Assembly: GCA_976226885.1 (NCBI GenBank)
Contig: OZ320316.1
Coordinates: forward strand, 80,104,001 to 80,168,000
Length of the DNA: 64,000 nt
Source of the DNA: Iphione sp. A-MEVVRFRX5
Lineage: Eukaryota
Reading direction: 5' to 3'
The notes under the pieces are model-generated. The model saw nothing but the letters and a program-made list of their open reading frames with translations, was not told the origin of the DNA and searched no databases. The position numbers and the translations under genes are program-made. Shown piece after piece: positions 6,907 through 60,110 of this stretch. Within the stretch, counting starts at the first letter, position 1, and each line of letters begins with the position of its first letter.

Positions 6907-7568
6907 CCGTTATGCTTTCATTAATGTGGGGGTAGACCTCCCACACACCCCTTTCTTTTCTTTTTCAAATTTCATTCTTTTTTCACGATTAGGATATTAT
7001 GCAATATCCTAACTTAACAAAGTATCACAAATCAGTTTGCCACTGGTTACGTAACACATCAATACTTTATTTGCATAGCAATATACATTTACATATAAAG
7101 TGCATGGTTTCCTTTTCCAGACAAAGGCGTTCATAGAGGGCATACCTGTTTTTGCTGGTATTCAAATTGTCAAAAGACAGACTATCACTGCAAAACCTTA
7201 TATGGTCAACGCGTAAAACGATCCTCGCAGTGATGCACAACCATAAAAATATGACCCACCACGATGTTATTTCAATTATTCTACGTATAGGAATCGATTC
7301 GTAGCTTAATTTTATAGAATTTTCGCGCTCTTGATGGGTATTTAGCCAAGGTAAACGTCGTAAGTTAAGTTCAGTGACAGGACGGTTTTTTGTGCTGACA
7401 AAGCGACGTATACAAATGTAAACGCACTGGTGACAATGTACTCCTGTGTGAGTACCCGAGACCATTTGTGTAGCAATTCTTTTTGTTTGTCTTCCAGGGT
7501 TTCTGCTACGCACATGGTTTTCTCCACTGTGAGTCACTCGGCAAACAGGGAATAGCAGAACAGGCGTA

Positions 7569-9497
7569 ATGGCCAAGTCGCACGAGAGGAAGATTGTCGA
7601 CGTGCGCGACCTGTTTGGCCAGACTAAAGAGAAGATCGATCTCTCGGAACTGGACACAAGCCCACGTTTGTCGCCTCAGCCCAGTGGCTTCGCCGGTGGC
7701 TTGAAGCACAGTGCTCTGGGTGCCTACACGCCGAAGGCCTGTCAGAGCACTAACGACAATGTGTTTTTCGGCGATAGCTCAGTAGAAAATGGATCGCGGC
7801 ACGACAACGAAAGGCGCAAGGGCGACGCACCGCGACCGCCGGTGCTGGTCGACGTCGATGTCGGGATAGGCGAACAGGAGCTTGACTTGGATTCAGACGT
7901 CATGACCCCGGAGCCTGTAGAGTCACGTAGTCCGTGGAGCTTTGGCAGCGGCGCCAGCAGTGGGCACCCGGGGCCACCGGTCCAGACATCACGTACACGG
8001 CCCGCCCCCACGGCCGGCGCAGGCGGGCATACTAAACCTGGTCAGTTTATCATGAATGGCCGAGCGGCCAGTCGAGGCTACAATAAGTATGAAGGCCGGC
8101 CCTTGCCAGCGCCGCCGTCGGAGTCGCCTCCATCGTCACCGCCACCTGCACCAAGACAGACACACGCCGACCATGGACGTTCATCACCAAGGGACGTGGG
8201 TGGAGTAATGAGTAACTTTAGCTTCGGGGTCAAGCCGCCTTCTAACCGACCACCTCCCGTCTATGGAGGAGGGCATTCGGCTCAGGCGGATGGAGGAGCA
8301 AGAGTCGGAGGGACAGGGGCCAGTGGTAGTGCCAAGAGCCAGGTCAGTCTAGACCAGAGCTCATCGGGTGTAGAAACGGACGATAACGGCTCGCCAGAGG
8401 GCACTGTGCAGGTATTTAAAGCAGGCCCAACATTAGGTAGTCGACCGGCTGCCCCTCCCCCTCCGCCACAGGTCTCTTCACTTTCTTCTAGACCCCCTCC
8501 ACCTATCGCCGAGCATTCACCGGCGACGGACAGCAGTTATCACTCTGCGGAGGGAAGTGACGCCGAGGACGAGGGCAGCGACTACTATGAAGAGGGAGAA
8601 GCTACTATCGACCTGGAGGATGAGGACGAGACGACCATTGAAGGAGGCACGCGTCACGTCTACCACGAGTATCAGGGTGATGACTTTGGCCAGTTCCTCA
8701 ATGAGGAACACAGCCAGGATTCAGCTGCTGGAATGCGTGGCAAGAAGAAACGACATCGACGAAAGAAGAGAAAGGAAGCACTCGTTACCCCCGGCAACTC
8801 AGCGAGTATCTCCTCCGGAGAAGCCACTACCAAGGATAAGAAACGCACTTTGCGAGGCCGGCTGGCTGCCGTTTTCATGGGCAACAAGGCCGGCGATGTC
8901 GAGCAGAGGGCGGCGGCGGCGGCAGCGCCGAACGACAAGATGGCTGACTTGCGAAAGCGCATCGAAGCCGGCGGCACGATCCACACCTTCTCCTTCGCCG
9001 ACTCCAAGATAGGCAACACGTTAACGCGGCAGGGCCACATGCAAGGCCAGGTTAGTCAGTCGGGGGACGATGGTGCCGGGGGCGTGCAAGGCCTGGCGCC
9101 ATGTGACGCTGCCTATGGCGGTGACCGCAAATGGTGGAACACGGATATGCTCTCGGCTCGACAGCTTCAGAGCAATTCGGACGTCATGCTCATGTCAAGG
9201 CGAGCGCCGGCAGCTCCGCACACCCTCGCACCTCTATCCCAGGGCGAACTTAGTCTCAAAGAAACAGCACCGTCACCAGCACCGCCTTCGGGGATTGACT
9301 CTGGATCTCCCTCGATGGACTTTGAATCGCAGCGCAAGAGCGTGATGTATGGATCACACCCCGACAAAAAGTTCCAGAAGCAAAGTATTTTTAGAAGGTT
9401 CAAGAAGGACACTGGAAATATAGATAGCATTCCCGACAATACAGTTACAAATCCCTTGGCAGGGCTAGAGAGTGACTTAAAGGATATACAGTTTTAA
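7569..9497 (+). CDS. 642-aa low-complexity (Pro/Ser/Gly-rich, acidic tract, basic NLS-like KKKRHRRKKRK) protein of unknown function; single exon or large terminal exon
   Basis: 1929-nt open frame, clearly more GC-rich than its flanks; GTAATGG start context; polypyrimidine+CAG acceptor-like site at 7478-7497; no recognisable domain. Confidence 0.75.
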   Translation: MAKSHERKIVDVRDLFGQTKEKIDLSELDTSPRLSPQPSGFAGGLKHSALGAYTPKACQSTNDNVFFGDSSVENGSRHDNERRKGDAPRPPVLVDVDVGIGEQELDLDSDVMTPEPVESRSPWSFGSGASSGHPGPPVQTSRTRPAPTAGAGGHTKPGQFIMNGRAASRGYNKYEGRPLPAPPSESPPSSPPPAPRQTHADHGRSSPRDVGGVMSNFSFGVKPPSNRPPPVYGGGHSAQADGGARVGGTGASGSAKSQVSLDQSSSGVETDDNGSPEGTVQVFKAGPTLGSRPAAPPPPPQVSSLSSRPPPPIAEHSPATDSSYHSAEGSDAEDEGSDYYEEGEATIDLEDEDETTIEGGTRHVYHEYQGDDFGQFLNEEHSQDSAAGMRGKKKRHRRKKRKEALVTPGNSASISSGEATTKDKKRTLRGRLAAVFMGNKAGDVEQRAAAAAAPNDKMADLRKRIEAGGTIHTFSFADSKIGNTLTRQGHMQGQVSQSGDDGAGGVQGLAPCDAAYGGDRKWWNTDMLSARQLQSNSDVMLMSRRAPAAPHTLAPLSQGELSLKETAPSPAPPSGIDSGSPSMDFESQRKSVMYGSHPDKKFQKQSIFRRFKKDTGNIDSIPDNTVTNPLAGLESDLKDIQF

Positions 9498-27340: not shown

Positions 27341-27395
27341 ATATATATTAATAACAACCAACACACGAGGATTGGGCTGACAATACGAGTAACTC
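27341..27395 (-). repeat. Ngaro repeat B2
   Basis: Identical to 27550-27604. Confidence 0.95.
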
Positions 27396-27407
27396 TTTAA
27401 TAACAAA

Positions 27408-27555
27408 AGTTAAAAGACAGAGACTGTATGACGGTTACAACAATGGAATGATGATGTCATAACTGCATGGTCACCTAGTTACTCACTAAGAAACATATTG
27501 TTGATGGTTACATGAATATATATTATCATAAATATGCTATTTATAAGGCATATAT
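27408..27555 (-). repeat. Ngaro repeat A2
   Basis: Identical to 31406-31553. Confidence 0.95.
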
Positions 27556-27604
27556 ATTAATAACAACCAACACACGAGGATTGGGCTGACAATACGAGTA
27601 ACTC
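27550..27604 (-). repeat. Ngaro repeat B1 (55 bp)
   Basis: Identical to 27341-27395; overlaps A2 by ATATAT. Confidence 0.95.
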
Positions 27605-27613
27605 CAAACCCAA

Positions 27614-28570
27614 TCAAGAAAATAACATACGATCAGACTCTAACAAGCTCTCATGGTCAATTTGTAAGTATCTAAAAACACAGTTAGAGCTCCAGTCGCC
27701 CCTAAACTTAATCTCCTGAAGCGAGGCACCTTTGGCAGCTAGGAAAGTGGCACCTCCACGTCTAAAAAAGTGAGAAGTAACTCCTGTATAACCTGCTACA
27801 TTACATAAATTAATTAATTTATCACGGAACATGTTATAATCAAGCGGAACACACTCAACACCATTACGAAAGCTGAAAACCAGATCATCTGGCCTGCCAT
27901 TACTCAATAATTTCCATGTCTTAAGGACGCTCACAACACAAAACTTTGCAATATGACAAAATCCTATAGGAACCACAATACTCCTAGAGTTGTCTCTAAA
28001 ACTTTTACCTCTACAAATCCTCAGCAACAGACCGGTATCAGAGAATTTAATATCCTCCCATCGTATGCCCTTTGAAGAAGTATACATCTCCTTCCTCAGC
28101 AAGCCACGAAAAGATAACAGCATAGCGGACCAAATCATGAAGTCAACTTTCAACCCCAGATTCAACAAATCCCTGAAAACAGACAATTCCCTTAACCCTA
28201 TAGCCACTGCCCTTTTTGCTGGAAAGTTCCTACTCCTCTTAATACCTTTCATCACCTCCTCAAACAAAAAATTACCTTCCAATGATAAAGGACACCCAAA
28301 CTTCTTTGAATAAAACACCACAGTAGAGAGGTACATACGAATAGATGAAAAACACTTGTCCCTAGCTAAAAAGGACAAATATAAACAAATCTGAAGGACA
28401 CTACACGGCAAGGTAGAAAAGCCGGCTTGACCACAGAAGTCTTCGTAGCACCTCCACTGACTACTCCTTGCTTTTTTCGTATTCTCTGCTGCTGCATTTC
28501 TCATCCAGCCTTTCATCTCCTCCTTCAGTTCCTCCCGAATCCCTGCAAACAATAGACAGGGTATCACCAC
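27614..28570 (-). CDS. Tyrosine recombinase of the Ngaro element
   Basis: Catalytic set R (FRGLLRK), HxxR (SHFFRRGGAT), W...Y (GDWSSNCVFRY); overlaps pol 3' end by 110 nt in another frame; annotated start is GTG. Confidence 0.92.
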   Translation of the reverse strand: MVIPCLLFAGIREELKEEMKGWMRNAAAENTKKARSSQWRCYEDFCGQAGFSTLPCSVLQICLYLSFLARDKCFSSIRMYLSTVVFYSKKFGCPLSLEGNFLFEEVMKGIKRSRNFPAKRAVAIGLRELSVFRDLLNLGLKVDFMIWSAMLLSFRGLLRKEMYTSSKGIRWEDIKFSDTGLLLRICRGKSFRDNSRSIVVPIGFCHIAKFCVVSVLKTWKLLSNGRPDDLVFSFRNGVECVPLDYNMFRDKLINLCNVAGYTGVTSHFFRRGGATFLAAKGASLQEIKFRGDWSSNCVFRYLQIDHESLLESDRMLFS

Positions 28571-30530
28571 AACAGCAACTATCAGTCCAGTCTAATTCCA
28601 GTAGTCTAACTAACTCCCTTGACTCAAATCCCCTAGACAAAACATCAGCAATCACGTTCTCTTCACTCGGGACATAATTCACCACAAAATAAATGTTGAA
28701 CACACAACAAGTCCAAAAAATCTCTTTCAACCATTCCATACACACTGAATTGCTGCTTCTTCCAGTCTTCAACATAAACAGAACACACATATTATCCGTT
28801 TTGATGCGAATCATTCTATCTTTTAGACTCTTACCCCATCTTTTCAAAGCAACAACTACGGCCCATAATTCATAAATATTAATATGGGCCTCAAATAAGA
28901 CCCCCCCTGGTTTGAACTCCACATGATGTTCGAAGACATCCAGACACCAAGGTTGAGTGTCCCATTTCCCAAAAAACCAATCATCTGCACACCAACCCCC
29001 GAACCCCTTTAATGAGGAATCCGTGGTTATACATGCAGTTGGACACCTACAGTCAATGATCTTCTTTTTACCATTGAACCATTCAATGAATACTGACCAC
29101 CAACCTAAATCCGAAATCACCTCTGCTGGGATACTTCTTCTCTCCCTTCCATTTTCATACTCATTCAACCATTTGTATACACTTCTCGAGTAAGTGCGGC
29201 CTCCCTTGACCACAGTGGCGCAGTGAGCAAGTAGGCCAGACAATTTCTCCACCTCTTTCTTACTTACAAGCCTCATATTCTTCACTCTAGAGACTGCTAT
29301 TTTACACCGCTCCACTTTGTCCTCAGGCAGCCTCAACTCCATAAGGGCTGAATCCACATCAATACCTAAAAATCTGCAAGTGGTGCTTGGTGTGGTAATC
29401 TTATTCCTCGCAACTTTGAATCCAAAATTCTCAATCACATTGATCATGCAATCACCAAACCTCTCACAATCCTCGTAGCTATCACCAATGATCATAAAAT
29501 CATCCAGATAATTCACCACTCTGGCTCCACTCCTTCTCACACATTCACACTTCACCAATTCAGAAATTCTAGAAAAAATGTACGGAGCACAACGAAGACC
29601 AAAACATAGTGTGTTGTTCACAAAAAATCTCTTCACACCTCCAAACTCCCATGCGAATCCTTGATAGGTTCTGTGGCTAGGACGAACATGTACACTTCTG
29701 TATGCACTTTTGATGTCCACAACCATCATATACTCATGACCAGTTAACATACAGCCAACATCATCCACACTATTGTAATGAAAATTCTTTTGAGTATTAG
29801 ACATAAAATTATTTATCCCCCTCCGACGTGGCATAGAACAATCTGTGATGGGTCTTAAAGAACCATCACCTTTCCTTACACCACCTAAGGCATTCACACA
29901 CTTTGGTCTCACATCCACCTCCGAAATGATACCACTTCTTAATTCATCCTCAATATTGCCAGTCATAGCTTCAAAAAACTCGCCTTCAGTTATAGATCTA
30001 TAATTTTCACACATATAGGATGTCTCACAATCATCATCAATGATATTAAAGCCTTCAGTTAATCCGCACCATAGCAGTTCTTTTTCATCTAAAGGCATGT
30101 CACTCCTGCAGATAGCATAAACACAACGACATGGGCGTAATTTTACTGGCATATCGCCAACAAAGTAGCTACATTCACAGTTACCATTAATACACTCACA
30201 GTAAATCGGAATTAGCTTCTCAGAAACAGGTGTCACCACTGATAACACATAACCATCACCATCATCTTTCTCTTTGCGAATATGACTGCTCAAGAAAGAT
30301 CCTTCGAATACTTGCAAATACTCAGCGCACTCGTCGGTATCAGTTGTCATGACGTAACTATCAACACAAGGAAGAAAGTCATTTACAACGTCCACAGATG
30401 GGCAGACTTCACTGGATGAATCATCTAAACTGACATTGCCCACCAAATCTGAAGATAAAACAAATTTGTCATCCAATTCAATTACAAATACCTCATCTCC
30501 TGTCAGTTTATCCTCATCCGAATGGCACCG
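28461..30530 (-). CDS. pol: Ngaro reverse transcriptase / RNase H ORF (frame open directly from the gag UGA; first true ATG ~60 codons in)
   Basis: VVDIKSAY, LCFGLRCAPYIF, VNYLDDF (RT); ITTDSSLKGFGG, HINIYELWAV, IKTDN, NVIADVLSR (RNase H); the ORF-track start at 30476 is TTG. Confidence 0.92.
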   Translation of the reverse strand, partial: RCHSDEDKLTGDEVFVIELDDKFVLSSDLVGNVSLDDSSSEVCPSVDVVNDFLPCVDSYVMTTDTDECAEYLQVFEGSFLSSHIRKEKDDGDGYVLSVVTPVSEKLIPIYCECINGNCECSYFVGDMPVKLRPCRCVYAICRSDMPLDEKELLWCGLTEGFNIIDDDCETSYMCENYRSITEGEFFEAMTGNIEDELRSGIISEVDVRPKCVNALGGVRKGDGSLRPITDCSMPRRRGINNFMSNTQKNFHYNSVDDVGCMLTGHEYMMVVDIKSAYRSVHVRPSHRTYQGFAWEFGGVKRFFVNNTLCFGLRCAPYIFSRISELVKCECVRRSGARVVNYLDDFMIIGDSYEDCERFGDCMINVIENFGFKVARNKITTPSTTCRFLGIDVDSALMELRLPEDKVERCKIAVSRVKNMRLVSKKEVEKLSGLLAHCATVVKGGRTYSRSVYKWLNEYENGRERRSIPAEVISDLGWWSVFIEWFNGKKKIIDCRCPTACITTDSSLKGFGGWCADDWFFGKWDTQPWCLDVFEHHVEFKPGGVLFEAHINIYELWAVVVALKRWGKSLKDRMIRIKTDNMCVLFMLKTGRSSNSVCMEWLKEIFWTCCVFNIYFVVNYVPSEENVIADVLSRGFESRELVRLLELDWTDSCCCGDTLSIVCRDSGGTEGGDERLDEKCSSREYEKSKE

Positions 30531-31355
30531 TCACTGTTGCTTCGATGACATCTTTCCCTTAGCAACCTTGTCGCCATCTGACGTCTTGTTACTGAAACAG
30601 TCATTCGCCTTATGACCGCCAGTGCCACAATTTAAACACGAGTGCTTATAAATGCAATTCACATCATTACACTCCCCTGCATTGTATCTGTAGCAAATAC
30701 GATCCATCTTCTTGGATTTCCTCATCGACTTGCCTCTGCTGACACTCGTAGTGGCATCCACGCCCATGTACTTATGTACTAGCTCAGTGTCACCGAAGCA
30801 AAAAGTCTTGATACCATCCTTTGCAGCCTTGTACCGCATCTCTTTATCGTATTTCACCAACGATTTCTGGTTGTACACCTTTGTAGCTGCTTTAGTAGAC
30901 AGGAATGACAAATGATCGACATATGGCTGGGCATCAAGTCCCTTGGATAACAGTCTCTTTAGCAGACCGAGCGACCCCACCATCAATTGTTCAAACGAAT
31001 CGATCTCCTCAACATCAGAGTAGCGTGAGATGTCAAACCTCTTGTTGCGCTTACCCTGTTTCTTCTTCCTACGTCTAATCCTCCTCTTATCGGCTTCCTC
31101 CTCATCATCATCAGAGTCTGAGAACTCAGACTTGCACGAACTCGATGAGCTGCTCACATCCTTCTCCACACCAGGCTTCGTCTCTGTGTTCACCGCTTCG
31201 GCTGCCACCAACGTCTCGATCAAGTTCTCCAGCCTCATAATACGATCACTCAAATTGCTGTCTTCTCTGGACAAATTCACCTTCTCGTCATCATCAGCAG
31301 ATTGCACTGGCTCTTGACAATTTTTGCCAACAGGGGGGGGTGATTTACCCCACAT
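30531..31355 (-). CDS. gag: Ngaro gag-like ORF1 with C-terminal CCCH + CCHC zinc fingers
   Basis: CYRYNAGECNDVNCIYKH-SCLNCGTGGHKANDC; YD..MR..AA motif typical of DIRS-order ORF1; true start probably ATG 31375 with a frameshift in the C8 run. Confidence 0.85.
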   Translation of the reverse strand: MWGKSPPPVGKNCQEPVQSADDDEKVNLSREDSNLSDRIMRLENLIETLVAAEAVNTETKPGVEKDVSSSSSSCKSEFSDSDDDEEEADKRRIRRRKKKQGKRNKRFDISRYSDVEEIDSFEQLMVGSLGLLKRLLSKGLDAQPYVDHLSFLSTKAATKVYNQKSLVKYDKEMRYKAAKDGIKTFCFGDTELVHKYMGVDATTSVSRGKSMRKSKKMDRICYRYNAGECNDVNCIYKHSCLNCGTGGHKANDCFSNKTSDGDKVAKGKMSSKQQ

Positions 31356-31405
31356 TTACGACAATATTTGCCCATAATGCTGATCCAACGGTAAACGTCC
31401 ACAAC

Positions 31406-31553
31406 AGTTAAAAGACAGAGACTGTATGACGGTTACAACAATGGAATGATGATGTCATAACTGCATGGTCACCTAGTTACTCACTAAGAAACATATTGTT
31501 GATGGTTACATGAATATATATTATCATAAATATGCTATTTATAAGGCATATAT
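31406..31553 (-). repeat. Ngaro repeat A1 (148 bp), with TATAAATA near its 5' end
   Basis: Identical to 27408-27555 (offset 3998). Confidence 0.95.
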
Positions 31554-34500
31554 GTGAACAAAGGCCCACCATGGTATAAAAATATTGCAAAATTAATACT
31601 ATCTGAACCAAATTCTGAAGAATACATCTACAGATATTGATGACGTTCTTGGTAACAATATAAAAGCTGGTTGGTGACATATTTTTTTCATACTAGAACG
31701 AATGAAATAAATCGATGATACAGAAGCACGCGCGTGTCCTATCCCCGGCGACAGTTCGGAACCATCGAGGGCTCCCATCGGCACAAGTCCTGCTCCGTGA
31801 AGGACCCAGGTCTTTCCTCTAGTGGTTCTTCCTGACATTGATTAATGACTACAATCAATCCTCTCTGGTCCTGGTGTCCCCTCCAGGCGCCATCCAATCA
31901 AAGCACCTGGCAAGCCCGGCCCCATAGTGTGCATCTGCGCACGGTAGATCACATCGATCAGTTGCGCGTTGGTCCACATTTCATGGGACACGTCTTGTAT
32001 CTATTTAACTATTTTTTGGAAATGATATGTTAAAATATAAGGTTCGCAGGGGAAACTGTACGGCTACCACCAGCTGTAATGTCTTCAAGTTAATTTAGAT
32101 TGAACTATCGGTATAAGGTACACTGACTTGACGGAGTCCAGTTTCTTTCTGTTAGCATCAGATGGCGCCACGTGTACCGTGTAGAACTGTGTATGCACCG
32201 CTGTCCGTTACAAAAACACTTTACATGTCACAAACTAAACGTGGCCATTAGATACTCCAGGGAGAATGGCTAGCATTCTAGTGAAATTAAACATTCAATT
32301 CGTCAACAAACTGACAACCGACTGACCGTAAGTGACAATGACAAGGTAAATGCAAAAGGTAAAGCCGAGGGACATTTCAGTGCTTCTTAGGTTCCTTGTA
32401 TTAAGGGACGTCACAACCACGCATGTTCTTTCAGTAAGGACATGATAAGATATACACACATCTGCCTTTAAATGTATATACATGTACAGACCCCATCCTA
32501 AGAGTTATCGTGAGTGACAATCAAACATCCACGGTGTGAGTGCTCGTAACTGTGTTTCTGTGGCACAAACAAGCGTGCATGTGGTTTTGGTGTTATGTAT
32601 ATGTTCTGGGTCTTATATAAAACCACTTGAGTAACGCATCTCTTGGAACAAAGAAAGCGTAAGTATTTGTAGAGATGGACGCTATGGATCCACGTTAAAT
32701 GTACAGTTAAATATACATACATGACTGGGAAACGAAAAGGCCACTTAGACAAACTTTCTGCCATCTTACCCCATAAATAACTCACCATGAGTTTTTTCCC
32801 TCTTGGTTCCACTTTGACAAAACCTGATACTTCAACAAAAGCTGAAAAATGTGTCCCACTATTATCCTCAGAACACATATTTGGCATACTTTGACAAGTG
32901 AGCGGAAAGTTAAGTGTGTAGTCACGGCGAATAAACGGACTATAGCCAGTCTCGTCCGAACTAATTCAACCGAATGTCACTTGGCCCCTCGGCCTAAACA
33001 CTCGCTTGGATTCATCTGTTGCGGTGATATTAGACAGCTATACTGATATACAAGTCCCAGCGCCCTAACAAAAAGGAATTCACTATTTCATCTGAAGCGT
33101 GCGGATCCAAGAAATGCTCGGCCTTGACCTGGTTACCCGACCCGATGTCTCCCGGTCGTCGACACCCCATTGCCGATCCTCACCCCTTACACCTCCCTTA
33201 CTCGTCGGTGTCTGTGTGTGCAGCGCGGTGTGTGTGCACTGTGACAGTTGCACAGCGGAGCGCCCAGTTTTCGCCAAGCGGTATACAGCCTGCTCTAGGA
33301 GAGGGAGGCGGCGCTTGTCTTGGCCTCAGGTCTTAAGCAGCATACTCTCCAGCGTGGCTGACGGCACGTGGATCGCGGCACAGATTCCTGTTCAGCCTGG
33401 ATCATTCGCGTGGTGGTAAGCGGTTGGTGGTGGCGCCCTTTGATCCCTGCTGTAGACGTCAACGGCCACGCCTCCCTCGCAACGCCAGCCTCCCTGGAAT
33501 TACACGGGGCTCTGACGGCGGACTGCGTCATGCCCGCTGTTTCGGCGGCACTTTCGCGGCAGCTCACGCCAACACTTCGCTAAAGAGTCACTTTGCATGG
33601 AGATTTCCATCAAGTGAAGGCAGCGTGCGCTTTTCTACCTTCGTATTTCTAGGGGAATCCTAGTGTCGGCCTGGACCGTCCCCTGTGTCCAACAGGTGAG
33701 AAACAGACCCGACCACTGTACATTTCTTACAACTTACATCAGTTGCTAATTAATTGCTTTCATTTTGAAACGTTCTGCTGATGTGATCCCTGTGAATTGC
33801 TCTGCGTGAAACCTAGGGTGGGTGCCGCTGAGGGCATATGCCCATGCAGGTAATGAGAATTCCAGAGATGGTAGGCTCAGCAAGTGCTATGAAATGGAAT
33901 CTCTATTGCCTTACAACGTGCCAAATGACTTTACCCAGACCAGTGTACATGTAATTCATTTTTTCGCATGCCCTTTGGATCTGATCATTTATGGGTGACC
34001 GTATGGGATATAGCTGGGCGGGATAGAATGTCTTTACTCCCGCTTTTTGTCGGTGGAAAGCATCCAAATCACGCGATGGTACACAATTACCCAGAAGCAC
34101 AGCTCTGTCGTGAGCAGGTCGGGGTTGGCGTACACAAGTCATTTTTCTTAGAAGGGATGGCATTTATTCATGTCTTCCCTAGGACAGAAACTTGCATTAG
34201 GACTCGTATTTTAAAGGTAGCGCTTGTAGGAAAATGTATGCAGCAACCAATGTCTGGTGTGATCTACTTGGAATACGAGTCAGCTGTGTTCGACTCGATT
34301 GGATCAATATACACAGTGTAACAATCATCGTTTGATTCTTCCAGGAACTAGGCCAGTCTACAGGTTCCTGAATAAAAAAATTAAAAAGAGACCCACATAT
34401 GGTACGATTCATGATGAATTTATTTGCGCTTTGTCCAGCGCTATGACAGTACTTTGTGGTATAAATGAAATGTATACGCATTGGCACAGCAGGAGACTGA

Positions 34501-36552
34501 ATTTGCATTTCATCGCAGAACCAACCTTATATTCCTGATCACATTCATGTACTTGTAGCTTAGATAAACGTGCACGAAACTACATCGGTAATAGAAAGTT
34601 TACGTTGGATATAGATACATAGATTTCAAGTAAATATTCATACCGCGTATCAATTACATCCTTAACATCGGTCCACTGAAAATTTACTTATCAGATCATA
34701 TACATGTATACAGAAAGGCCGGAACAAATGTGGCGCATCTCCTGACTTGAGCGTTATGCGCGCGTCTATGTAAAATATGCAATTCCTTTTCCAAGCACTG
34801 GTAACATCGTATTGAAGCCGATTTGTGCATGGAGATGGCTTTCCTTATTAGGTTGCCCAGACAACTACGCCCTAGGGAACAATGAAATGTCGGGATCTTA
34901 TACTGATATTCATTGCAGAGCAATATTTAGTTAAAGGCTTGCTGGGTCAGATGAGGTCCAAGTGATATTTTGTGTCCAGTACGAAATGAGTCGCCCCGTT
35001 CTTATTAAACGTGATGTATTTTTCTACAAATTTAATATATTTTTATATTAGTTCATTGGTGTTGAGAAGAAAATGTAAACAACAAACCTATTAAATTGAT
35101 CTAACCGTTTACACGCACCGTCGTATCTGCCGAGTATAATAGAAATGCATGTACGATTTCAAGAATGAAATCAAGAATGAAATTTACTATATTGTAGTTA
35201 GGATTTTTAACTGATTTCTTCTTCACGGGACAAACAATTAGGAGATAGTGCACTGAGTCAGAGACTATCTGTAATTAGTTTCCAATTAATGCACCTGTGG
35301 AAGCTCTGACGTGGCCCAGAATATGACCTATCCAAGCCCAAGTACATCAGAATGAACCCTGCAAATGACACCCAGGTCGAAAGGCCATGACCGCCAAGCT
35401 CTCCTTAGTCATGAATATCAATGGATAAAAAGCAGTGTGTTCGTGAAGTCAAGGTCAGGCACAGGTCACATTTGCTATCCATATCACATGCTCACAATCT
35501 ATAGCAACCATAGAAATTAAGAAGGTAAGAGTGTGATAATGCTAACTAGCGGAGCTGGCACAACTGTAAACATGTGACTGGACATATCTGAAGCCTTAAT
35601 AAGACCATTTTCGTCAATTTTTTTGTGTCGTTTATTATGATGTTTCAAATGTACCATATTCAGCGTAAAAGCATCCCATCTAAAAGAATGTGTTGAGTAT
35701 GTATGTGCATCGCGTGAATTGATTTCACCGTCTGACATTATCTTTGTCGAATGAAGATGTCAGTCTATTCATAGCTTTGCCACTTATGTTGTCATGCAGC
35801 CAGTCTTGTGGATGCAGACCCTGCACGAGCACACCATGAGTTGACTGCATTTTGCCATTGTCTAGCGGGTCATCTCCTCCTCGCTGCTGGCTTCAGGGGT
35901 GTTCCAGCCGAGTACGTGTGCTGCTTACTCATGTGACCGATAGGGCAGGAGCTCACAGAGGGCAGATAGACTCACGCCTCTCATTCACGCTGGCCCCGAC
36001 TACATTGACCACCATCTCAGTAGCCCTCCCTACGGTCTACTTTTAACTCTACTAACCTCAGTTACTTTGCTTCCTTTTTTATGCTCGCCAGGGGACGGAG
36101 ATATGAAAAAAGTCTCCCCATGTACTCAACTAAGATGAATACCCCGAAAAGGTAAGGTTTGTGCATGTGGAAAACCGTCCAGCTTGTCACTGTGTAGCAT
36201 CGTCACCATATCTTATTAGCATTGTCTATCCAGATGTAGCATGTTGTTTGTACCGTATCACTAACTTCGTCACTTGCTTGCAACATGTAGTCAACATCAG
36301 TATCAAACGCTAACAAAGCCATGCAATACAGGGCAGAACATTTATCCTGCTTCTGTGAAGAAGCTGAAGCGTATTAAACAAGACGCGGATTTACGTTGTT
36401 ATCAGGCAATGCGTTCTGGTGTAACTAGAGTATAGGTTAGTAACTGATGCCCTGCAGCATGTTCTACTGAGTGTGTATGCACGTGAGTTATCAAATCATG
36501 ACCGGTAGGCAGTGGGGAGGTACACAATTATTGACGAATCACTGAACGTTAA

Positions 36553-36649
36553 AGTAACGGGTACCGCGGACGCCACCTTTACATATTATGACGTTATAAT
36601 GAGACAATGTCACAATTTAGTGAAAGTGACGTCGGCAGTACCCGTTACT
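36553..36649. mobile_element. 97-bp fold-back mini-element, Kolobok-like termini
   Basis: ~30-bp imperfect inverted arms AGTAACGGGTAC.GC.GACG.CAC; flanks TTAA left and TTAG right; RR...YY ends. Confidence 0.55.
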
Positions 36650-37913
36650 TTAGCCTCTGGCGAAGGGTCGATTACCTGCAAGGCAGAGAGTAAGGTGTTG
36701 CCAGGAAAAAAATGTCTGATAATAAATATGGTAGGTCAATTGCCTATTTGAAGCGGGAAGGCGTCCACGTAGTCCCAACATGGACAAATAGACCCCTTAC
36801 AGTCAAGATGCACGCAATGCCGTTTCAGCTGTCCAAGACACGCATTTGTCCTCGATTGTCAAATCGTATTTATCCTGACAATATGTTTTTCATTTGGTAA
36901 ACTATTTTAAAAGGTGACTAGTATAAGTTACAAACTCTGGATTTTGAAAAGATGAGAATCAACCATTTCTGCCCAGTATCGAATATATACAGTCGGCGCT
37001 CGGTGAAGATGTGGATTGGACTTTACTAAAAGATTAAAAGCTTTAGGTTACAATTTGGCTACCCCGCTGAAAAAGAGGTCATGCAAGCAGTTTACTCTCT
37101 CATGCACGGATATCTGCAAAGGCCACCCTGAGGTTCTCTTGAGAGGAGGGACGCGAGCCTGCCTCTAGACATAAAGGCAGGACCTCCTGAGCAGTGGACA
37201 GGGTGCTGCGATGGAGACAGGATGGAGAGGCTGGATCAGCCGCAGCATCACAGAGCGGAGATGTGCGCAAGCTAGACAGTACATTGCCATAGAGACCGTG
37301 GAAATGGGCGAGTCCCAGTGTGCATGCCATGTCCAGAGAGTCGGCTGTGTCATTTACATCTGCTCGCCTGCTGCTCTTGACACCTCATCGTCCATGCTGT
37401 CAGTGAATCAATAGTGGCCACATCGAGAAGACTCGGCCGATATTAAAACGCCGAGACATTCTGCTCCCCTTTCTCTTGCGCCGGCAGACCAGCTCCCATC
37501 GCCAGCGAGGCCGTCTTGCGGATGTAGCAAGGTGTTGGTCTCCTACATTTTGGGGAGGAGACGGGTGCTGCCTTCGGCCACAAAGCACACAGATGCTTGT
37601 CCCGTGTCTACAGCCAACCACTAGCCGCCTGACGCTTGCTCTCCACGCCGGCGGCCGGGCACACTGCCTGCCTCCAACCGTGTGCGCCTGTGCCACCCGA
37701 GCCCAGATGTCAATAATCATCACTGCCTCTGCAAGTGTTTAATAATTTTTGCGGGGTGCGTGCATAATAAATAGCCGGCACCCGGGTCCCAGAGTTGGAA
37801 CTGGGTAGGGCTAATCCAATGGAAGAGGCAAACAACAACTGAAAAGCTGGGCGTGGTGCGCTTTAAACGGTTCGTCAGTCGACAGGTTGGCGAGTTGGTT
37901 CGTCGGTTTGCAG

Positions 37914-47900: not shown

Positions 47901-49952
47901 GCAACGTCTTTGTAGAGGGCCATTTACATTCCTAACCAAATCAGCACCTGTCTTTCTCACAGGCAACGACCATCACGAGATTTCTGTCTGGCAGTCTATG
48001 CTGACCGCGAACGTTTTCGAGGTCAAGTCTTTAACCCATCCAATTTTGCCTTGGGCTATTGCATCGCTTAAGACGTGACGTCACTGTGCCGTGTCGTCAA
48101 ATCCGATCCGTGCAATTAGGTCAAGATGCCTGGCGAACCTTGTCGTGAGAACTAAAATACAGCCAAGTGGAGACGGACTGTCGCGCAGGTCTCGCGTTGT
48201 ATAGTTACTTTACCAGCATGTAGACTAGATAGGTGAACCTAAAGCTTAGGCAGTGACGTTGTTTACTGTGATAAATGAGACACTCCCTGCCAAACGTCGC
48301 CTTAGTGTACAATGGTCACCGCAACCTTGACACATCTGTCCCATACTGCCATACTGAAGAAGAGAAGTTGGCATTAGAAAGAGCAGCTGCATGACAAATC
48401 ACCCACACACGTCACGTCTCGCGTCAAACACAACTTATATTCCCATTATATACTATATATCATATACATGTAGTGTGACAGGCAGGGGAATCACAATTCA
48501 AGAGGTGGGCAGCATGACCGGGTAATTCTAGGTGGAGGCTCGATTTTCATACCTAGGCTTGAGAGTACCTTCCTGTTAGGCGTAGGTTCGTCGGTGTGGC
48601 GGGTCAGATGGTGATTCCCTTTCTGAGATCGTGGGACCGCTCCCCGTGTTCCTATTTATGGATCCATTGAGCCATCACCTAATCACGCTGCGCCCATATC
48701 ACATGAATGCCAACATGTTTACCCTGACATCGAACACGTTCCCACGGTGTGTAACCTTAGGTTGCCTTTATTGTTGATGTAAACCGTTAGGATAGAAAAT
48801 AATCCCCCTACGTCTAGGTTGATAGTTCAGAAACCCGTGAGGTTTCCTGATGTTACAACGATACAGCAACAGAAATAAGGTCTAGCAAAGGCTAGCTCTT
48901 AAATATGTATGTATTATATGCAAACAGAGTACAACGAAGTCACTTGAGATAGGTCACCGCGCGGACGTATGAAAAAAAACACTCAAGCATCGTTTGTGAA
49001 GTAATACTTCATTCAGCAGACATTGATTTAATTAGAGTTGTTTCCGCTACCAGCATACAGCAATGTATTACATGTACTTTGTACTTTGTAGACAAAAAGG
49101 GAATGGTAGAATTTGACGCACATTTCCTTACAATCCAGGAAAGGGATATTCAACTGAAATACATACAGATGTACATACAGATGCAATAATATATACACAG
49201 TAGACACTCAGTTAGTGACCAACCACCAGGGGCGACAAGACTCGCCCAGTTCAAATACTTTCGTGCAGAACTGACCTTGTTTCTACACTTTTCCTATATG
49301 ACACTCACTCACAGAGGCAACCCCTACCGGGAGTGACAAACTCTCTGTAGAGACCATCACTTTAAGAAAGAAAATGGCGTGTTTCACTGCCAGGAGCAAT
49401 CAAATCACTGCCACCAAATGGAGAAGGTGCGAACTTCAACTTCTTTGAAGGGATTTACCAGCTGGGAGAGGCGGCACCTCACTCCCGACACCTGATGGAG
49501 GTGCGATTCTCACCCCTTTCAAGGTATTCAAGATCTGGGAGAGGTGCGACCTTGCTCCCGACACCTAGAAATTTTGGCACTTTTAGGACTCTTTTTGGTC
49601 GGTTTCCTTACGTGCGTTGGTGTCCGTGTGCATTCCCATGCATTTCCATGCGTTTTTATCGGATAGTAGGCAATCAGTGTAGGGTGTGTTTTGAATGCGT
49701 GAGCTGTCCGTGTGCATTACTTATGCCCGGTTTCCCGTTTGCGCTACTGCTACCTAAGCCCACAGATAAGACAGGCCTTGGCGAATAAGGGTTTCCCGTT
49801 CTCCCACCTTATCGGCTGGAGATTAAATATAATCTCTGCCATAAGACTGAGGGTTTCTCGTTCCATGCGGGCTATAGATAAGGCCGTACAGCACAAGATA
49901 CATCCAGAGGTGTCTTAACGTTGGTATAGTCACCGTCATTTGTGCGAAAACC

Positions 49953-51167
49953 ATGGATATGTATGGACTTTTCGAGGAGTTTGAGGAACATGGAAGAGGC
50001 AGAATTGGAGAACGGAGACGATTAATGCTTGGGCGTGTACCGCGGAGATTACCAGATCCAAACAACCCCATGGAATTATATTCTGCTAACGAAATACGAC
50101 AGAGATTCCGTTTTTGGCCAGAGACAATCTTGGAAATAACAGCGGTGATTTCTGCTGTCCTACCGACCACCAATGCAAATGGGTATCATATGCCTCCACT
50201 ACTACAGACATTTGTTTTCCTCAGATTTATGGCAACAGGATCATTTCAGAGGGTCATTGGTGATACTATGAATGTGACGAATTCGTGTGTATGCAAAATT
50301 GTACACAAATTCTCTTCTCTTCTACAAGGAATGGCTGGACGCTTCATTACCATGCCATCCACACCACAAGAAATCAGAGAAACGAAACGCAGATTCAGAG
50401 CTATCGCTGGGATACCAGATGTCATTGGAGTCATAGACTGTACACATGTGAGGATATTGGCTCCTACGAGGAATTCAGAAGCATACCTAAATCGAAAGAA
50501 TTACTGTTCTCTGAATGTACAGGTAAGCCCAACACATCTGCCTTCACCCAATAACTAGCGTAATTCACTGTCAACTAGATGAATCGATTATGTTAGATGT
50601 GAATGATTCATGTATTTCTCACTAATAAACTTACCTCTGTATCCATTGCAGATGGTATGTGATGCACGGAATCGGATTGGAGATGTCAACGCGAGGTGGC
50701 CTGGTAGCACACATGATGCTAGGATATTTCGCATGAGTCCACTTGCCACTCAATACTTGCCTAACTTGCCTTCTCCTATTGGATATTTGTTGGGTGATGG
50801 TGGATATCCATGTACACATCGTCTGCTGACTCCATACAGAAACCCTCAACCCCGACACACAGGGTATCAGAATGCACTGACCAAGACAAGAGTTGTTATA
50901 GAGAACACTTTTGGAATTTTGAAGAGACGGTTTGCAGCTCTCGGTGGTAAGCTGCAGATAGCTCCACATAAAGTAACCACAATTATCGTTGCAGCTGCAG
51001 TCTTACATAATATTGCAGTTGACAACAGGGACTATCAAGTCGATGATCTCGAGCCACTACATGATGAATCTGATGAAGAAGATGATGGAGAATTCGACTA
51101 CATCTACGAGGATGTCGATGAAAGAGCTGGTGGTATGAGAGATGCAGTGGCCGAACTGTTTATGTAA
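49953..51167 (+). CDS. Harbinger DDE transposase (HARBI1-like), exons 49953-50522 and 50652-51167, 361 aa
   Basis: ACCATGG start; CAG|GTAAGC...TTGCAG|ATG phase-0 intron of 129 nt; GVIDCTHV, NRKNYCSLNVQ|MVCD, WPGSTHDARIF, LLGDGGYP, RVVIENTFGILKRRF. Confidence 0.93.
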
Positions 51168-51358
51168 AGAACGAGGAAAATGATTTTTTGGAAAAAAGAC
51201 ATTTATTCATGTAATGTCAACAACTACAGCTAATGTGCAAGTTAAACATGATATTACTTAACTATGACAACGCAACATGTGTCCATTGTATTGTAACCTG
51301 CAGGTAGAGTACATACTCCATAGTACAGAGCATAGCCTCTTAAAGACCTATGTTGTCC

Positions 51359-52865
51359 TTATTGGTATGGATGAGGGGGTACACCTGGCGCCTGATACCC
51401 TGGATTCAGTGTCAAGCGCATTTTGGCCAGTGATATGTGGGCAATTTGCTGCTTCATCTCAATCATGTCCATCTGGGATTTGTAATAAGAGTGCTGCATC
51501 CGATGCATTTCGATCTCCCTCTGTTCTCTCCTCTGCTCCATCTCTATCTCTCTCTGTTCTCTCCTCTGCTCCATCTGATGTCTTTCCTTCTCACGTTTTG
51601 CAGCATCCTCTGTGAGTTGCAGTTGGCGTTGGCGAAACGCATCCTCTTTCTCCTGTTGAGCCTCCATGAGGTCGAGCTTGGCCTGCCTGTACATTGCTCG
51701 TGCCTCTCGCTCTGTCTGTAACGCTGAATATTCAGTTAATTTATGGTCGAGAACACTGTTGCGTTTGGTATGCATTAGGAGGTCAGCTTGTTTCCTCTTG
51801 ACATCAAGGGCAGCATTCTCTGCCTCGATAGTAAGAAGCCTGATCCGTTCTTGTGTCTCCTGAGACCTGGTAACAATTGTGGGTCGACGAGGTGTCCGGT
51901 TCTGGTGACTTGACGAAGATGAAGATGAAATGGTTGCAGACGTACCCTGGAGTAACGACTGACTCTGGGACTGACTCTGTGATTGACTCTGAGAACTGCT
52001 GGGGTCCTGAGTATCGTCTGTGCTGACAACGTCAATGTGGTCAACACTCTCACTGGGCACCATATGCACGTCACTCTGTGTTGGCTGGAGCGGTGGAGGT
52101 GGTTGTGATGGTGGAATGATATTAGGACTGTCCTCAGGTGAAACCATAGACACAGGGTCACTGGGAACCATGTGGTCTGAAAAAAATGCAGAATTGTTAG
52201 GAATTTCAAGGCAAATGCATATGTAGGTAAGAGAGCAATAAAGTCATTTATGTACAATGAGATTTATTCTGTTATCAATAATTTTTCAGTAACAACAATC
52301 ATAACAGCTGGGTTCACATATATCACACACGTACCATATGTGGAGACAAATCCCTCTACGCCAACGACATCGGGTCGCTCCAATCCACCCGTTTCCAGGA
52401 AATGTTCCACATCTCGCCCAGGAGGTGCAGCAGGAGGTCCCCCACCAGTCAGGCTTTGGTCGTCCACATAGCGTTTGGCTGTAAACGAAGTACATGGTAA
52501 TATTATTCAAGGCACCTCAATAACGCAATGCATATGTAATGTGAAGGGAATCCACTTGCCTAATCTATCACACAGGGGCCTATTAGTTTCACATATGATA
52601 TACAGATACATTGAAATGTGTACTACATACCTTTCTGCTTGACGTTGGTGTACCTCTTCCTAAGGGCACCCTCCTCGCGGTGTGTGGAGACCATAGCATT
52701 AAACTCAGTCGTTATTTTCTTCCAGGCCCAATTACGCTTCTCTTTGCCACCAAATGTGTCCACAGAGATTTGGCTTATCCCATACTTATTAATCAGTCCC
52801 TGGAGCTTATAACTGTCCTCCTGGGACCAGTTGGCATTGCGCTGTCGTTTCCCTGGTTCAGTCAT
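51359..52865 (-). CDS. Harbinger Myb/SANT-like DNA-binding protein, exons 52865-52631, 52478-52335, 52176-51359, 398 aa
   Basis: RNANWSQED...AWKKITTEFNA...LRKRYTNVKQK|AKR...LTGGGP; two phase-1 GT-AG introns keep the frame; C-terminal coiled-coil-like E/Q/R tract. Confidence 0.88.
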
Positions 52866-57197: not shown

Positions 57198-58704
57198 ATG
57201 ACTGAACCAGGGAAACGACAGCGCAATGCCAACTGGTCCCAGGAGGACAGTTATAAGCTCCAGGGACTGATTAATAAGTATGGGATAAGCCAAATCTCTG
57301 TGGACACATTTGGTGGCAAAGAGAAGCGTAATTGGGCCTGGAAGAAAATAACGACTGAGTTTAATGCTATGGTCTCCACACACCGCGAGGAGGGTGCCCT
57401 TAGGAAGAGGTACACCAACGTCAAGCAGAAAGGTATGTAGTACACATTTCAATGTATCTGTATATCATATGTGAAACTAATAGGCCCCTGTGTGATAGAT
57501 TAGGCAAGTGGATTCCCTTCACATTACATATGCATTGCGTTATTGAGGTGCCTTGAATAATATTACCATGTACTTCGTTTACAGCCAAACGCTATGTGGA
57601 CGACCAAAGCCTGACTGGTGGGGGACCTCCTGCTGCACCTCCTGGGCGAGATGTGGAACATTTCCTGGAAACGGGTGGATTGGAGCGACCCGATGTCGTT
57701 GGCGTAGAGGGATTTGTCTCCACATATGGTACGTGTGTGATATATGTGAACCCAGCTGTTATGATTGTTGTTACTGAAAAATTATTGATAACAGAATAAA
57801 TCTCATTGTACATAAATGACTTTATTGCTCTCTTACCTACATATGCATTTGCCTTGAAATTCCTAACAATTCTGCATTTTTTTCAGACCACATGGTTCCC
57901 AGTGACCCTGTGTCTATGGTTTCACCTGAGGACAGTCCTAATATCATTCCACCATCACAACCACCTCCACCGCTCCAGCCAACACAGAGTGACGTGCATA
58001 TGGTGCCCAGTGAGAGTGTTGACCACATTGACGTTGTCAGCACAGACGATACTCAGGACCCCAGCAGTTCTCAGAGTCAATCACAGAGTCAGTCCCAGAG
58101 TCAGTCGTTACTCCAGGGTACGTCTGCAACCATTTCATCTTCATCTTCGTCAAGTCACCAGAACCGGACACCTCGTCGACCCACAATTGTTACCAGGTCT
58201 CAGGAGACACAAGAACGGATCAGGCTTCTTACTATCGAGGCAGAGAATGCTGCCCTTGATGTCAAGAGGAAACAAGCTGACCTCCTAATGCATACCAAAC
58301 GCAACAGTGTTCTCGACCATAAATTAACTGAATATTCAGCGTTACAGACAGAGCGAGAGGCACGAGCAATGTACAGGCAGGCCAAGCTCGACCTCATGGA
58401 GGCTCAACAGGAGAAAGAGGATGCGTTTCGCCAACGCCAACTGCAACTCACAGAGGATGCTGCAAAACGTGAGAAGGAAAGACATCAGATGGAGCAGAGG
58501 AGAGAACAGAGAGAGATAGAGATGGAGCAGAGGAGAGAACAGAGGGAGATCGAAATGCATCGGATGCAGCACTCTTATTACAAATCCCAGATGGACATGA
58601 TTGAGATGAAGCAGCAAATTGCCCACATATCACTGGCCAAAATGTGCTTGACACTGAATCCAGGGTATCAGGCGCCAGGTGTACCCCCTCATCCATACCA
58701 ATAA
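57198..58704 (+). CDS. Harbinger Myb/SANT-like protein copy 2, exons 57198-57432, 57585-57728, 57887-58704
   Basis: TATAAA ~45 nt upstream of the ATG; same splice structure as copy 1; one R>C difference near the C-terminus. Confidence 0.88.
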
Positions 58705-58895
58705 GGACAACATAGGTCTTTAAGAGGCTATGCTCTGTACTATGGAGTATGTACTCTACCTGCAGGTTACAATACAATGGACACATGTTGCGTTGTCATA
58801 GTTAAGTAATATCATGTTTAACTTGCACATTAGCTGTAGTTGTTGACATTACATGAATAAATGTCTTTTTTCCAAAAAATCATTTTCCTCGTTCT

Positions 58896-60110
58896 TTACA
58901 TAAACAGTTCGGCCACTGCATCTCTCATACCACCAGCTCTTTCATCGACATCCTCGTAGATGTAGTCGAATTCTCCATCATCTTCTTCATCAGATTCATC
59001 ATGTAGTGGCTCGAGATCATCGACTTGATAGTCCCTGTTGTCAACTGCAATATTATGTAAGACTGCAGCTGCAACGATAATTGTGGTTACTTTATGTGGA
59101 GCTATCTGCAGCTTACCACCGAGAGCTGCAAACCGTCTCTTCAAAATTCCAAAAGTGTTCTCTATAACAACTCTTGTCTTGGTCAGTGCATTCTGATACC
59201 CTGTGTGTCGGGGTTGAGGGTTTCTGTATGGAGTCAGCAGACGATGTGTACATGGATATCCACCATCACCCAACAAATATCCAATAGGAGAAGGCAAGTT
59301 AGGCAAGTATTGAGTGGCAAGTGGACTCATGCGAAATATCCTAGCATCATGTGTGCTACCAGGCCACCTCGCGTTGACATCTCCAATCCGATTCCGTGCA
59401 TCACATACCATCTGCAATGGATACAGAGGTAAGTTTATTAGTGAGAAATACATGAATCATTCACATCTAACATAATCGATTCATCTAGTTGACAGTGAAT
59501 TACGCTAGTTATTGGGTGAAGGCAGATGTGTTGGGCTTACCTGTACATTCAGAGAACAGTAATTCTTTCGATTTAGGTATGCTTCTGAATTCCTCGTAGG
59601 AGCCAATATCCTCACATGTGTACAGTCTATGACTCCAATGACATCTGGTATCCCAGCGATAGCTCTGAATCTGCGTTTCGTTTCTCTGATTTCTTGTGGT
59701 GTGGATGGCATGGTAATGAAGCGTCCAGCCATTCCTTGTAGAAGAGAAGAGAATTTGTGTACAATTTTGCATACACACGAATTCGTCACATTCATAGTAT
59801 CACCAATGACCCTCTGAAATGATCCTGTTGCCATAAATCTGAGGAAAACAAATGTCTGTAGTAGTGGAGGCATATGATACCCATTTGCATTGGTGGTCGG
59901 TAGGACAGCAGAAATCACCGCTGTTATTTCCAAGATTGTCTCTGGCCAAAAACGGAATCTCTGTCGTATTTCGTTAGCAGAATATAATTCCATGGGGTTG
60001 TTTGGATCTGGTAATCTCCGCGGTACACGCCCAAGCATTAATCGTCTCCGTTCTCCAATTCTGCCTCTTCCATGTTCCTCAAACTCCTCGAAAAGTCCAT
60101 ACATATCCAT
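58896..60110 (-). CDS. Harbinger DDE transposase copy 2, exons 60110-59541 and 59411-58896
   Basis: ORF-track translations identical to copy 1. Confidence 0.93.

Follow-up and report, generated by a model that had tools for sequence, protein, structure and literature searches.

How a retrotransposon makes its reverse transcriptase (RT) when the pol frame has no start codon of its own is the question raised by a 64,000-nucleotide stretch of Iphione sp. A-MEVVRFRX5 (contig OZ320316.1 of the 1.18-Gb assembly GCA_976226885.1, positions 80,104,001 to 80,168,000; hereafter the window), which carries on its minus strand, at positions 31561-27341, a 4.2-kb element with gag, RT/RNase H and tyrosine recombinase (YR) genes. 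All features of the element given below are on this strand. An earlier note on this DNA had read gag and RT/RNase H as one frame interrupted by a single stop, and this is what is found, with the gag stop TGA at 30533-30531 within CAA CAG TGA CGG TGC and a frame of 689 codons behind it, whose first Met is residue 61, in line with the roughly 60 codons without AUG that the note had described. The in-frame UGA with the following CGG (30528-30533) is a predicted readthrough site, and programmed UGA readthrough very probably makes the reverse transcriptase as a Gag-Pol fusion, a reading that was proposed in the note and is supported at the level of sequence by a conserved UGA and a covarying stem.

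Copies of the element were collected in two ways. Searching with DNA yielded 40 matches; 29 of them, not counting the window, were retrieved, and UGA-C is present at the junction in 28 of these 29, with the remaining copy (L027) breaking off immediately before the junction. A search with the RT protein, employed to avoid selecting on the junction, returned 12,322 candidates, the best 150 of which were scored, and 120 of them constitute the RT-selected set after exclusion of the window copy, 24 copies already collected and five tandem neighbours. The junction could be located in 113 of the 120, the region being missing in L037, L046, L065, L067, L072, L121 and L141. Diversity among these copies is high, with a median RT nucleotide identity of 0.62 and 106 clusters at 85% RT identity among the 113; pol is open for at least 660 codons in 59 of them and the split repeats are intact in most, which suggests an unusually diverse, low-copy family with many independently active lineages. 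The 106 cluster representatives and the window copy together make up a set of 107 copies used in several of the comparisons below.

Among the 113 RT-selected junctions the codon is UGA in 112, UAA in one and a sense codon in none, and UGA is retained at 105 of 106 junctions after clustering at 85% RT identity. The base at position +4 is C in 97 of the 113, the codon before the stop is CAG, CAU, CAA or CAC in 103, and the codon after it is CGG in 31, CGU in 27, CUA in 23, CAU in 8 and another codon in 24. Hence, of the conservation that the note had expected across copies, UGA holds and CGG does not, the conserved context being the broader one of a codon starting with C; the stem, which was also expected, is borne out by covariation and is missing from one clade of 19 copies, as described below. 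Terminators of other frames in the same elements served as controls: pol frames end in UGA in 24, UAA in 18 and UAG in 17 of 59 cases, with C at +4 in six, and YR frames end in UGA in 54, UAA in 23 and UAG in 20 of 97. Since these terminators are mixed, UGA serves the host as an ordinary stop, and it is at the junction specifically that it has become fixed.

The segment behind the stop is conserved as protein. The peptide VFVIELDDKFVLSSD (30447-30491), which comprises residues 14-28 after the stop and whose codons lie within the loop that the stem closes, is maintained with synonymous change free, all six Leu codons being used at both Leu columns, although its 11-column core also served as the anchor for finding copies and the E and L columns are thus partly selected. 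The spacing between stop and motif is 16, 17, 18 or 19 codons in 113 of 113 copies, and stops between the junction and the end of the motif occur in one of 107 copies in frame versus 96 and 106 in the other two frames. An in-frame AUG precedes the motif in 18 of 113 copies. In the 79 copies whose pol frame is open for 260 codons or more, no Met is conserved ahead of residue 189, which itself lies downstream of Cys motifs (residues 113-134, 97-100% conserved); no near-cognate start is conserved (best column 37 of 79), nor is any splice acceptor between the stop and RT, where the best pyrimidine-rich column reaches 23 of 79 as compared to 89 of 101 for the YR acceptor. A splice site at the stop itself is not conserved either (AG in 50 and GT in 51 of 113), and in the interval from stop to motif no phase-1 AG is shared by more than 34 of 107 copies. 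A conserved frame with no conserved start or acceptor indicates that ribosomes translating this peptide have probably come from gag and passed the UGA.

The second prominent feature of the junction is a long-range RNA stem, whose 5' arm (30501-30519) begins 11 nt behind the stop and pairs with a 3' arm at 30414-30435 in helices of 7 and 10 bp that close a 65-nt loop. Both helices, which the note had proposed, are present in the minimum-energy and centroid folds of the window copy. RNAalifold on 18 DNA-selected sequences recovers the stem (covariation term -3.0 kcal/mol), and two-sided changes occur at 15 of the 17 given stem pairs in these sequences and at all 17 in an alignment of 40 sequences, namely the window and 39 RT-selected copies. 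In the latter, 87% of 680 cells are paired, a level reached by none of 500 shuffles and falling to 31-46% when the partner is slid by one to three columns; the 39 copies were hand-chosen from 68 representatives with 17-codon spacing, in clades near the window, and these values overstate the family as a whole. Over all 107 copies, the arms of a copy pair with each other at -20.3 kcal/mol versus -12.1 kcal/mol with the arms of other copies, and the own arm is the best of 21 in 63 copies, as compared to 0-9 of 107 at 11 shifted positions. When disjoint nearest-neighbour pairs of copies are used (n = 53), 42 favour their own arms and nine the swapped arms (p 3e-6), and none of the shifted-position controls of this test falls below p 0.17. 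A short hairpin over the stop itself, predicted by RNAalifold and seen as a palindrome in many copies, is not backed by covariation.

The recombinase appears to be reached by another route. A predicted phase-1 splice donor, AGG/GTAAGC, lies inside gag (31049-31057; intron start 31054), about 520 nt ahead of the gag stop, and GTAAG is found there in 88 of 107 copies, whereas phase-1 GTAAG occurs in 4-41 of 107 in 12 other 120-nt intervals; at donor sites located by their peptide pattern, GGT AAG is present in 76 of 79. The corresponding phase-1 acceptor, TTTGCAG/G (28543-28556), is predicted directly before YR, has its AG in 101 of 103 copies and co-occurs with the donor in 84. Donor 31054 and acceptor 28543 predict a 2.5-kb intron, whose removal would eliminate the readthrough cassette together with RT and fuse the Gag N-terminus to the recombinase. 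YR has a Met within its first 20 codons in 90 of 103 copies, so that a Gag-YR fusion is likely and not forced. The conserved donor and acceptor also illustrate how a genuine splice site presents itself in this family, and pol has nothing of the kind.

More distant relatives were obtained by a metagenome scan, which yielded 22 loci whose RT shares about 40% identity with that of the window, 19 of them with the gag zinc knuckle. In 11 of these 19 (L151, 152, 154, 155, 157, 159, 161, 162, 169, 170 and 172), belonging to about three RT lineages, gag and pol are in frame across a UGA, which is followed by CCU, CUU, CUA, ACG, ACA or AUG; four decayed relatives (L164-167), not counted among the 11, keep TGA with indels beside it. 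A splice donor and acceptor pair is likewise present in L152, L155, L156 and L161, and L154 has the acceptor only, with no GTRAG donor. In L156 (1157-4024), L158 and L160 pol overlaps gag in the +1 frame and all three gag frames end in UGA; in L156, moreover, the pol frame is 956 codons long and Gag contains a SAP domain.

A scheme that would accommodate these features has two RNAs. On the unspliced RNA most ribosomes would terminate at UGA and release Gag, and in a minority a near-cognate tRNA would insert an amino acid at UGA, so that a Gag-Pol of some 970 residues would be made in a low, fixed proportion. The leakiness would stem from UGA itself, from a next codon starting with C (CGG, CGU, CUA) and from a preceding codon containing A, and the two-helix stem 11 nt downstream, closing its 65-nt loop, may add to it as in alphaviruses. 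In the stem-less clade, mostly UGA-CUA(G), a strong primary context would be relied upon instead. On the spliced RNA the first ~105 gag codons would be joined in frame to YR, giving Gag(N)-YR with the readthrough cassette dropped. Going further, we lean slightly towards the view that readthrough is the ancestral and widespread mode of RT expression in a large Ngaro branch, paired with the gag-to-recombinase splice, that a gammaretrovirus-like plan was thereby reached independently and that one lineage traded the stem for UGA-CUAG.

Several observations weigh against the readthrough reading. The sample, being the best 150 of 12,322 candidates, leans towards the lineage of the window; 16 of 113 copies are without C at +4; and four of the distant relatives (L156, L158, L160 and L163) have pol in another frame. 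The fold of the window copy alone is marginal (z -1.93, with an equally good fold in 8 of 200 shuffles), so that support for the stem beyond chance comes from the copies. In a 19-copy clade (L066, L074, L079, L081, L088, L090-L092, L094, L100, L106, L108, L111, L113, L119, L128, L134, L143 and L147; FastTree support 0.95), consisting of 17 UGA-CUA and two UGA-CAA copies, the stem is at background, with a median of -10.8 versus -22.2 kcal/mol, and thus it is not needed everywhere. A wider scan revealed no common alternative pairing partner in CUA copies, and of five CUA copies outside this clade four keep strong stems; the loss of the stem, being a single event, is by itself no proof of a trade-off between CUA context and stem. 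Moreover, covariation demonstrates a structure and not its job, which could possibly be in packaging or splicing control. Part of the local conservation at the stop may serve a different motif, given an unexplained CGTCA upstream. Lastly, the comparable gag-UGA-pol junction of Candida Tca2, which has a predicted 3' structure, produced no readthrough when placed in a yeast reporter and proved to contain a minor promoter (PMC2194720).

The Tca2 promoter is also a precedent for a model in which pol starts on its own, by reinitiation, a non-AUG start, an internal ribosome entry site in the stem or an internal promoter with CGTCA and TGACG as DNA sites. CGTCA, which presumably resembles a CRE half-site, is located 14-10 nt upstream of UGA in 63 of 107 copies, where it mirrors the TGACG at the stop without covarying with it or with the +4 base, and further copies of it lie at -114, -50 and +8; at its site, ACG makes up 65 of 71 Thr codons (background 14%) and TCA 78 of 95 Ser codons (background 20%). 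CAA-UGA copies, 17 of 113, in addition carry an overlapping AUGA. Yet CGTCA at this offset is missing from the window copy, the AUGA start lies in another frame, neither AUG nor a near-cognate codon provides a conserved start in the columns described above, and in-frame indels and a stop-free stretch right from the UGA are not what an independent start predicts, which leaves this model very unlikely. Splicing could in principle serve pol as it is predicted to serve YR, joining the strong gag donor to an acceptor behind a UGA that is a true terminator, and the window copy indeed has TTTGTTTTATCTTCAG/AT in the correct phase at residue 28. Only 29 of 107 copies share the AG of that site, protein-level conservation extends over the peptide encoded 5' of it, and both the conservation of UGA alone and the open spacer would go unexplained, so that pol splicing is highly improbable.

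Two further explanations concern how UGA itself is read. Decoding as selenocysteine or editing to UGG would give the same fusion by another route; either would require that UGA alone be kept, as is the case, and a short palindrome over the stop is at hand in many copies. Searches of Rfam, however, revealed neither a selenocysteine insertion sequence (SECIS) nor any other family, at E values up to 5 for the window element and at gathering score for 20 other copies, though a diverged SECIS could escape them. A copy-specific duplex over the stop, as for editing, is not seen (own -14.1 versus swapped -13.8 and -14.3), and the junction context is the known leaky one, so that these routes are judged marginally less probable than an independent start of pol. 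Least credible, with next to no probability, is that UGA arose by decay within one continuous gag-pol open reading frame (ORF) or is read as sense by the host. The earlier note had named the prevalence of a sense codon, with UGA arising by CpG decay, as the outcome that would overturn its proposal, and the reverse was found: no sense codon occurs at the junction at a median identity of 62%, and no fused Gag-Pol frame exists among the best 150 RT matches, whose longest open frame is at most 709 aa versus the ~970 needed. These findings, together with the ordinary use of UGA as a terminator of pol and YR, refute CpG decay and a host code change; in the decayed relatives L165 and L167 compensating indels do open the frame across the junction.

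Readthrough at such a junction would be a known mechanism that is apparently new to the DIRS order. In alphaviruses, readthrough at UGA followed by CUA or CGG is increased by as much as tenfold through a stem 8-12 nt 3' of the stop (PMC3159437), and the nsP3-nsP4 cassette of Sindbis and Venezuelan equine encephalitis viruses resembles the junction described here in its UGA-CGG/CUA, its 8-12 nt spacer, its compensatory changes and its stem of ~10-12 bp with arms far apart. The element differs in being a nuclear retroelement whose stem has two helices (7 + 10 bp) closing a 65-nt loop, in which a conserved peptide is encoded; its function is predicted from sequence, and the likeness implies no sequence relation. 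In-frame stops between gag and pol that set the Gag:Gag-Pol ratio are known, with GAA-UGA-CU in the Tj1 group (PMC10085805 and PMC3159437); murine leukaemia virus, the fission-yeast Ty3-type elements Tj1, Tosmo1-3 and Tcry1, and Candida Tca2 share this arrangement. Unlike the present element, all of these are long terminal repeat elements with integrase and protease, and murine leukaemia virus uses UAG with a compact pseudoknot rather than UGA with a long-range stem.

Ngaro elements have been described, in the text available, with three separate or overlapping ORFs and with no mention of an in-frame stop, readthrough or a YR splice, in contrast to gag and pol in frame across a stop. Readthrough in DIRS-order elements is not described in the accessible portions of PMC6681497, PMC8547959, PMC3783388, PMC3266345, PMC4157794, PMC7192593 and 10.1101/2021.08.05.455354, and no report of it emerged from a literature search whose scope did not extend to the founding Ngaro paper, a 2015 review and Repbase; in a zebrafish preprint the term 'readthrough' refers to transcription. 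An account of how start-less downstream genes of DIRS-order elements are expressed is likewise missing from the available text of the literature examined, and readthrough for RT with splicing for the recombinase would, if true, be a testable answer for Ngaro. It would also carry stem-stimulated UGA readthrough beyond RNA viruses into a new retroelement order, the contribution made here being a densely covarying stem and a test on the scale of a family, and would change annotation, with Pol starting at the gag stop and YR at the splice site. More than 100 naturally diverged cassettes in one genome would thereby be at hand for studying the trade-off between context and structure in eukaryotic termination.

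The element is a Ngaro-type tyrosine-recombinase retrotransposon of the DIRS order, a label taken from structure and not from a tree with named references, and PMC4157794 cautions that structure alone may mislead in classification. Gag, RT/RNase H and YR follow each other on one strand and are flanked by split direct repeats in the arrangement A1 ... B1 A2 B2, the inner ones following YR; YR stands in place of an integrase and no methyltransferase is detected, all of which are Ngaro features (PMC8547959 and PMC4157794). Repeat A1 (31401-31561), at the element 5' end, is 98% identical to A2 across 161 nt, and the 3' repeats (27341-27604) consist of B1 (27604-27550), A2 (27563-27403) and B2 (27395-27341), B1 and B2 being 100% identical over 55 nt; both pairs are detected in 89 of 107 copies. 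The near identity of the repeats points to a young insertion, despite which the nearest other copy is merely 76% identical around the junction.

The gag-like ORF1 (30531-31375) starts at ATG 31375 (MGKYCRKC..., shared with other copies), which in the window copy is not in phase with the main gag frame (31355-30531) owing to a break in a C-run near 31341-31334. As assembled, the window copy is therefore probably defective, and mutation or an assembly error could be the cause; 51 of 107 copies are open from a MGKYCRKC-type start through to the junction. A CCHC zinc knuckle (30597-30638), evident in the sequence and with weak, below-cut-off Pfam zf-CCHC matches, ends 21 codons ahead of the stop and is recovered in 109 of 120 copies. 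Pol (28461-30530; terminator TAG 28463-28461) comprises a Cys-rich N-terminal region, RT (residues 218-391; RVT_1, E 1e-18) and RNase H (RT_RNaseH, E 0.005), and terminates less than 90 residues beyond the RNase H match. Pfam at E 0.1 finds no methyltransferase domain after RNase H, a domain that it may model poorly, and a pol free of methyltransferase separates Ngaro from PAT and DIRS1-like elements. The YR coding region (27614-28542) has HxxR and the terminal Tyr in translation and matches Phage_integrase at E 1.6e-5, the 25.2 bits being slightly under the 27.1 cut-off, and Pfam gives no integrase match in the element, YR occupying the place of a DDE integrase. Database relatives of Pol number 578, Gag matches in a protein atlas fall in eukaryotic clusters only, relatives of the element were not found in viral contigs, and no fused, longer relative of Gag occurs among 3,895 candidates, which is weak evidence.

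Elsewhere in the genome, five equally scoring RT matches lie in tandem about 4.0-5.4 kb apart at G000:C22:24579853-24600549, the first of them being L035. The window itself contains, besides the retrotransposon, a low-complexity open frame of 654 codons on the plus strand (7533-9497), which has no Pfam match and is probably a long host exon. Two near-identical, Harbinger-like elements, whose DDE_Tnp_4 transposase is split and accompanied by a second ORF, lie in inverted orientation at 49878-52263 and 57800-60185, and an inverted repeat at 36550-36652 has 33-nt arms that are 85% complementary with 37 nt between them.

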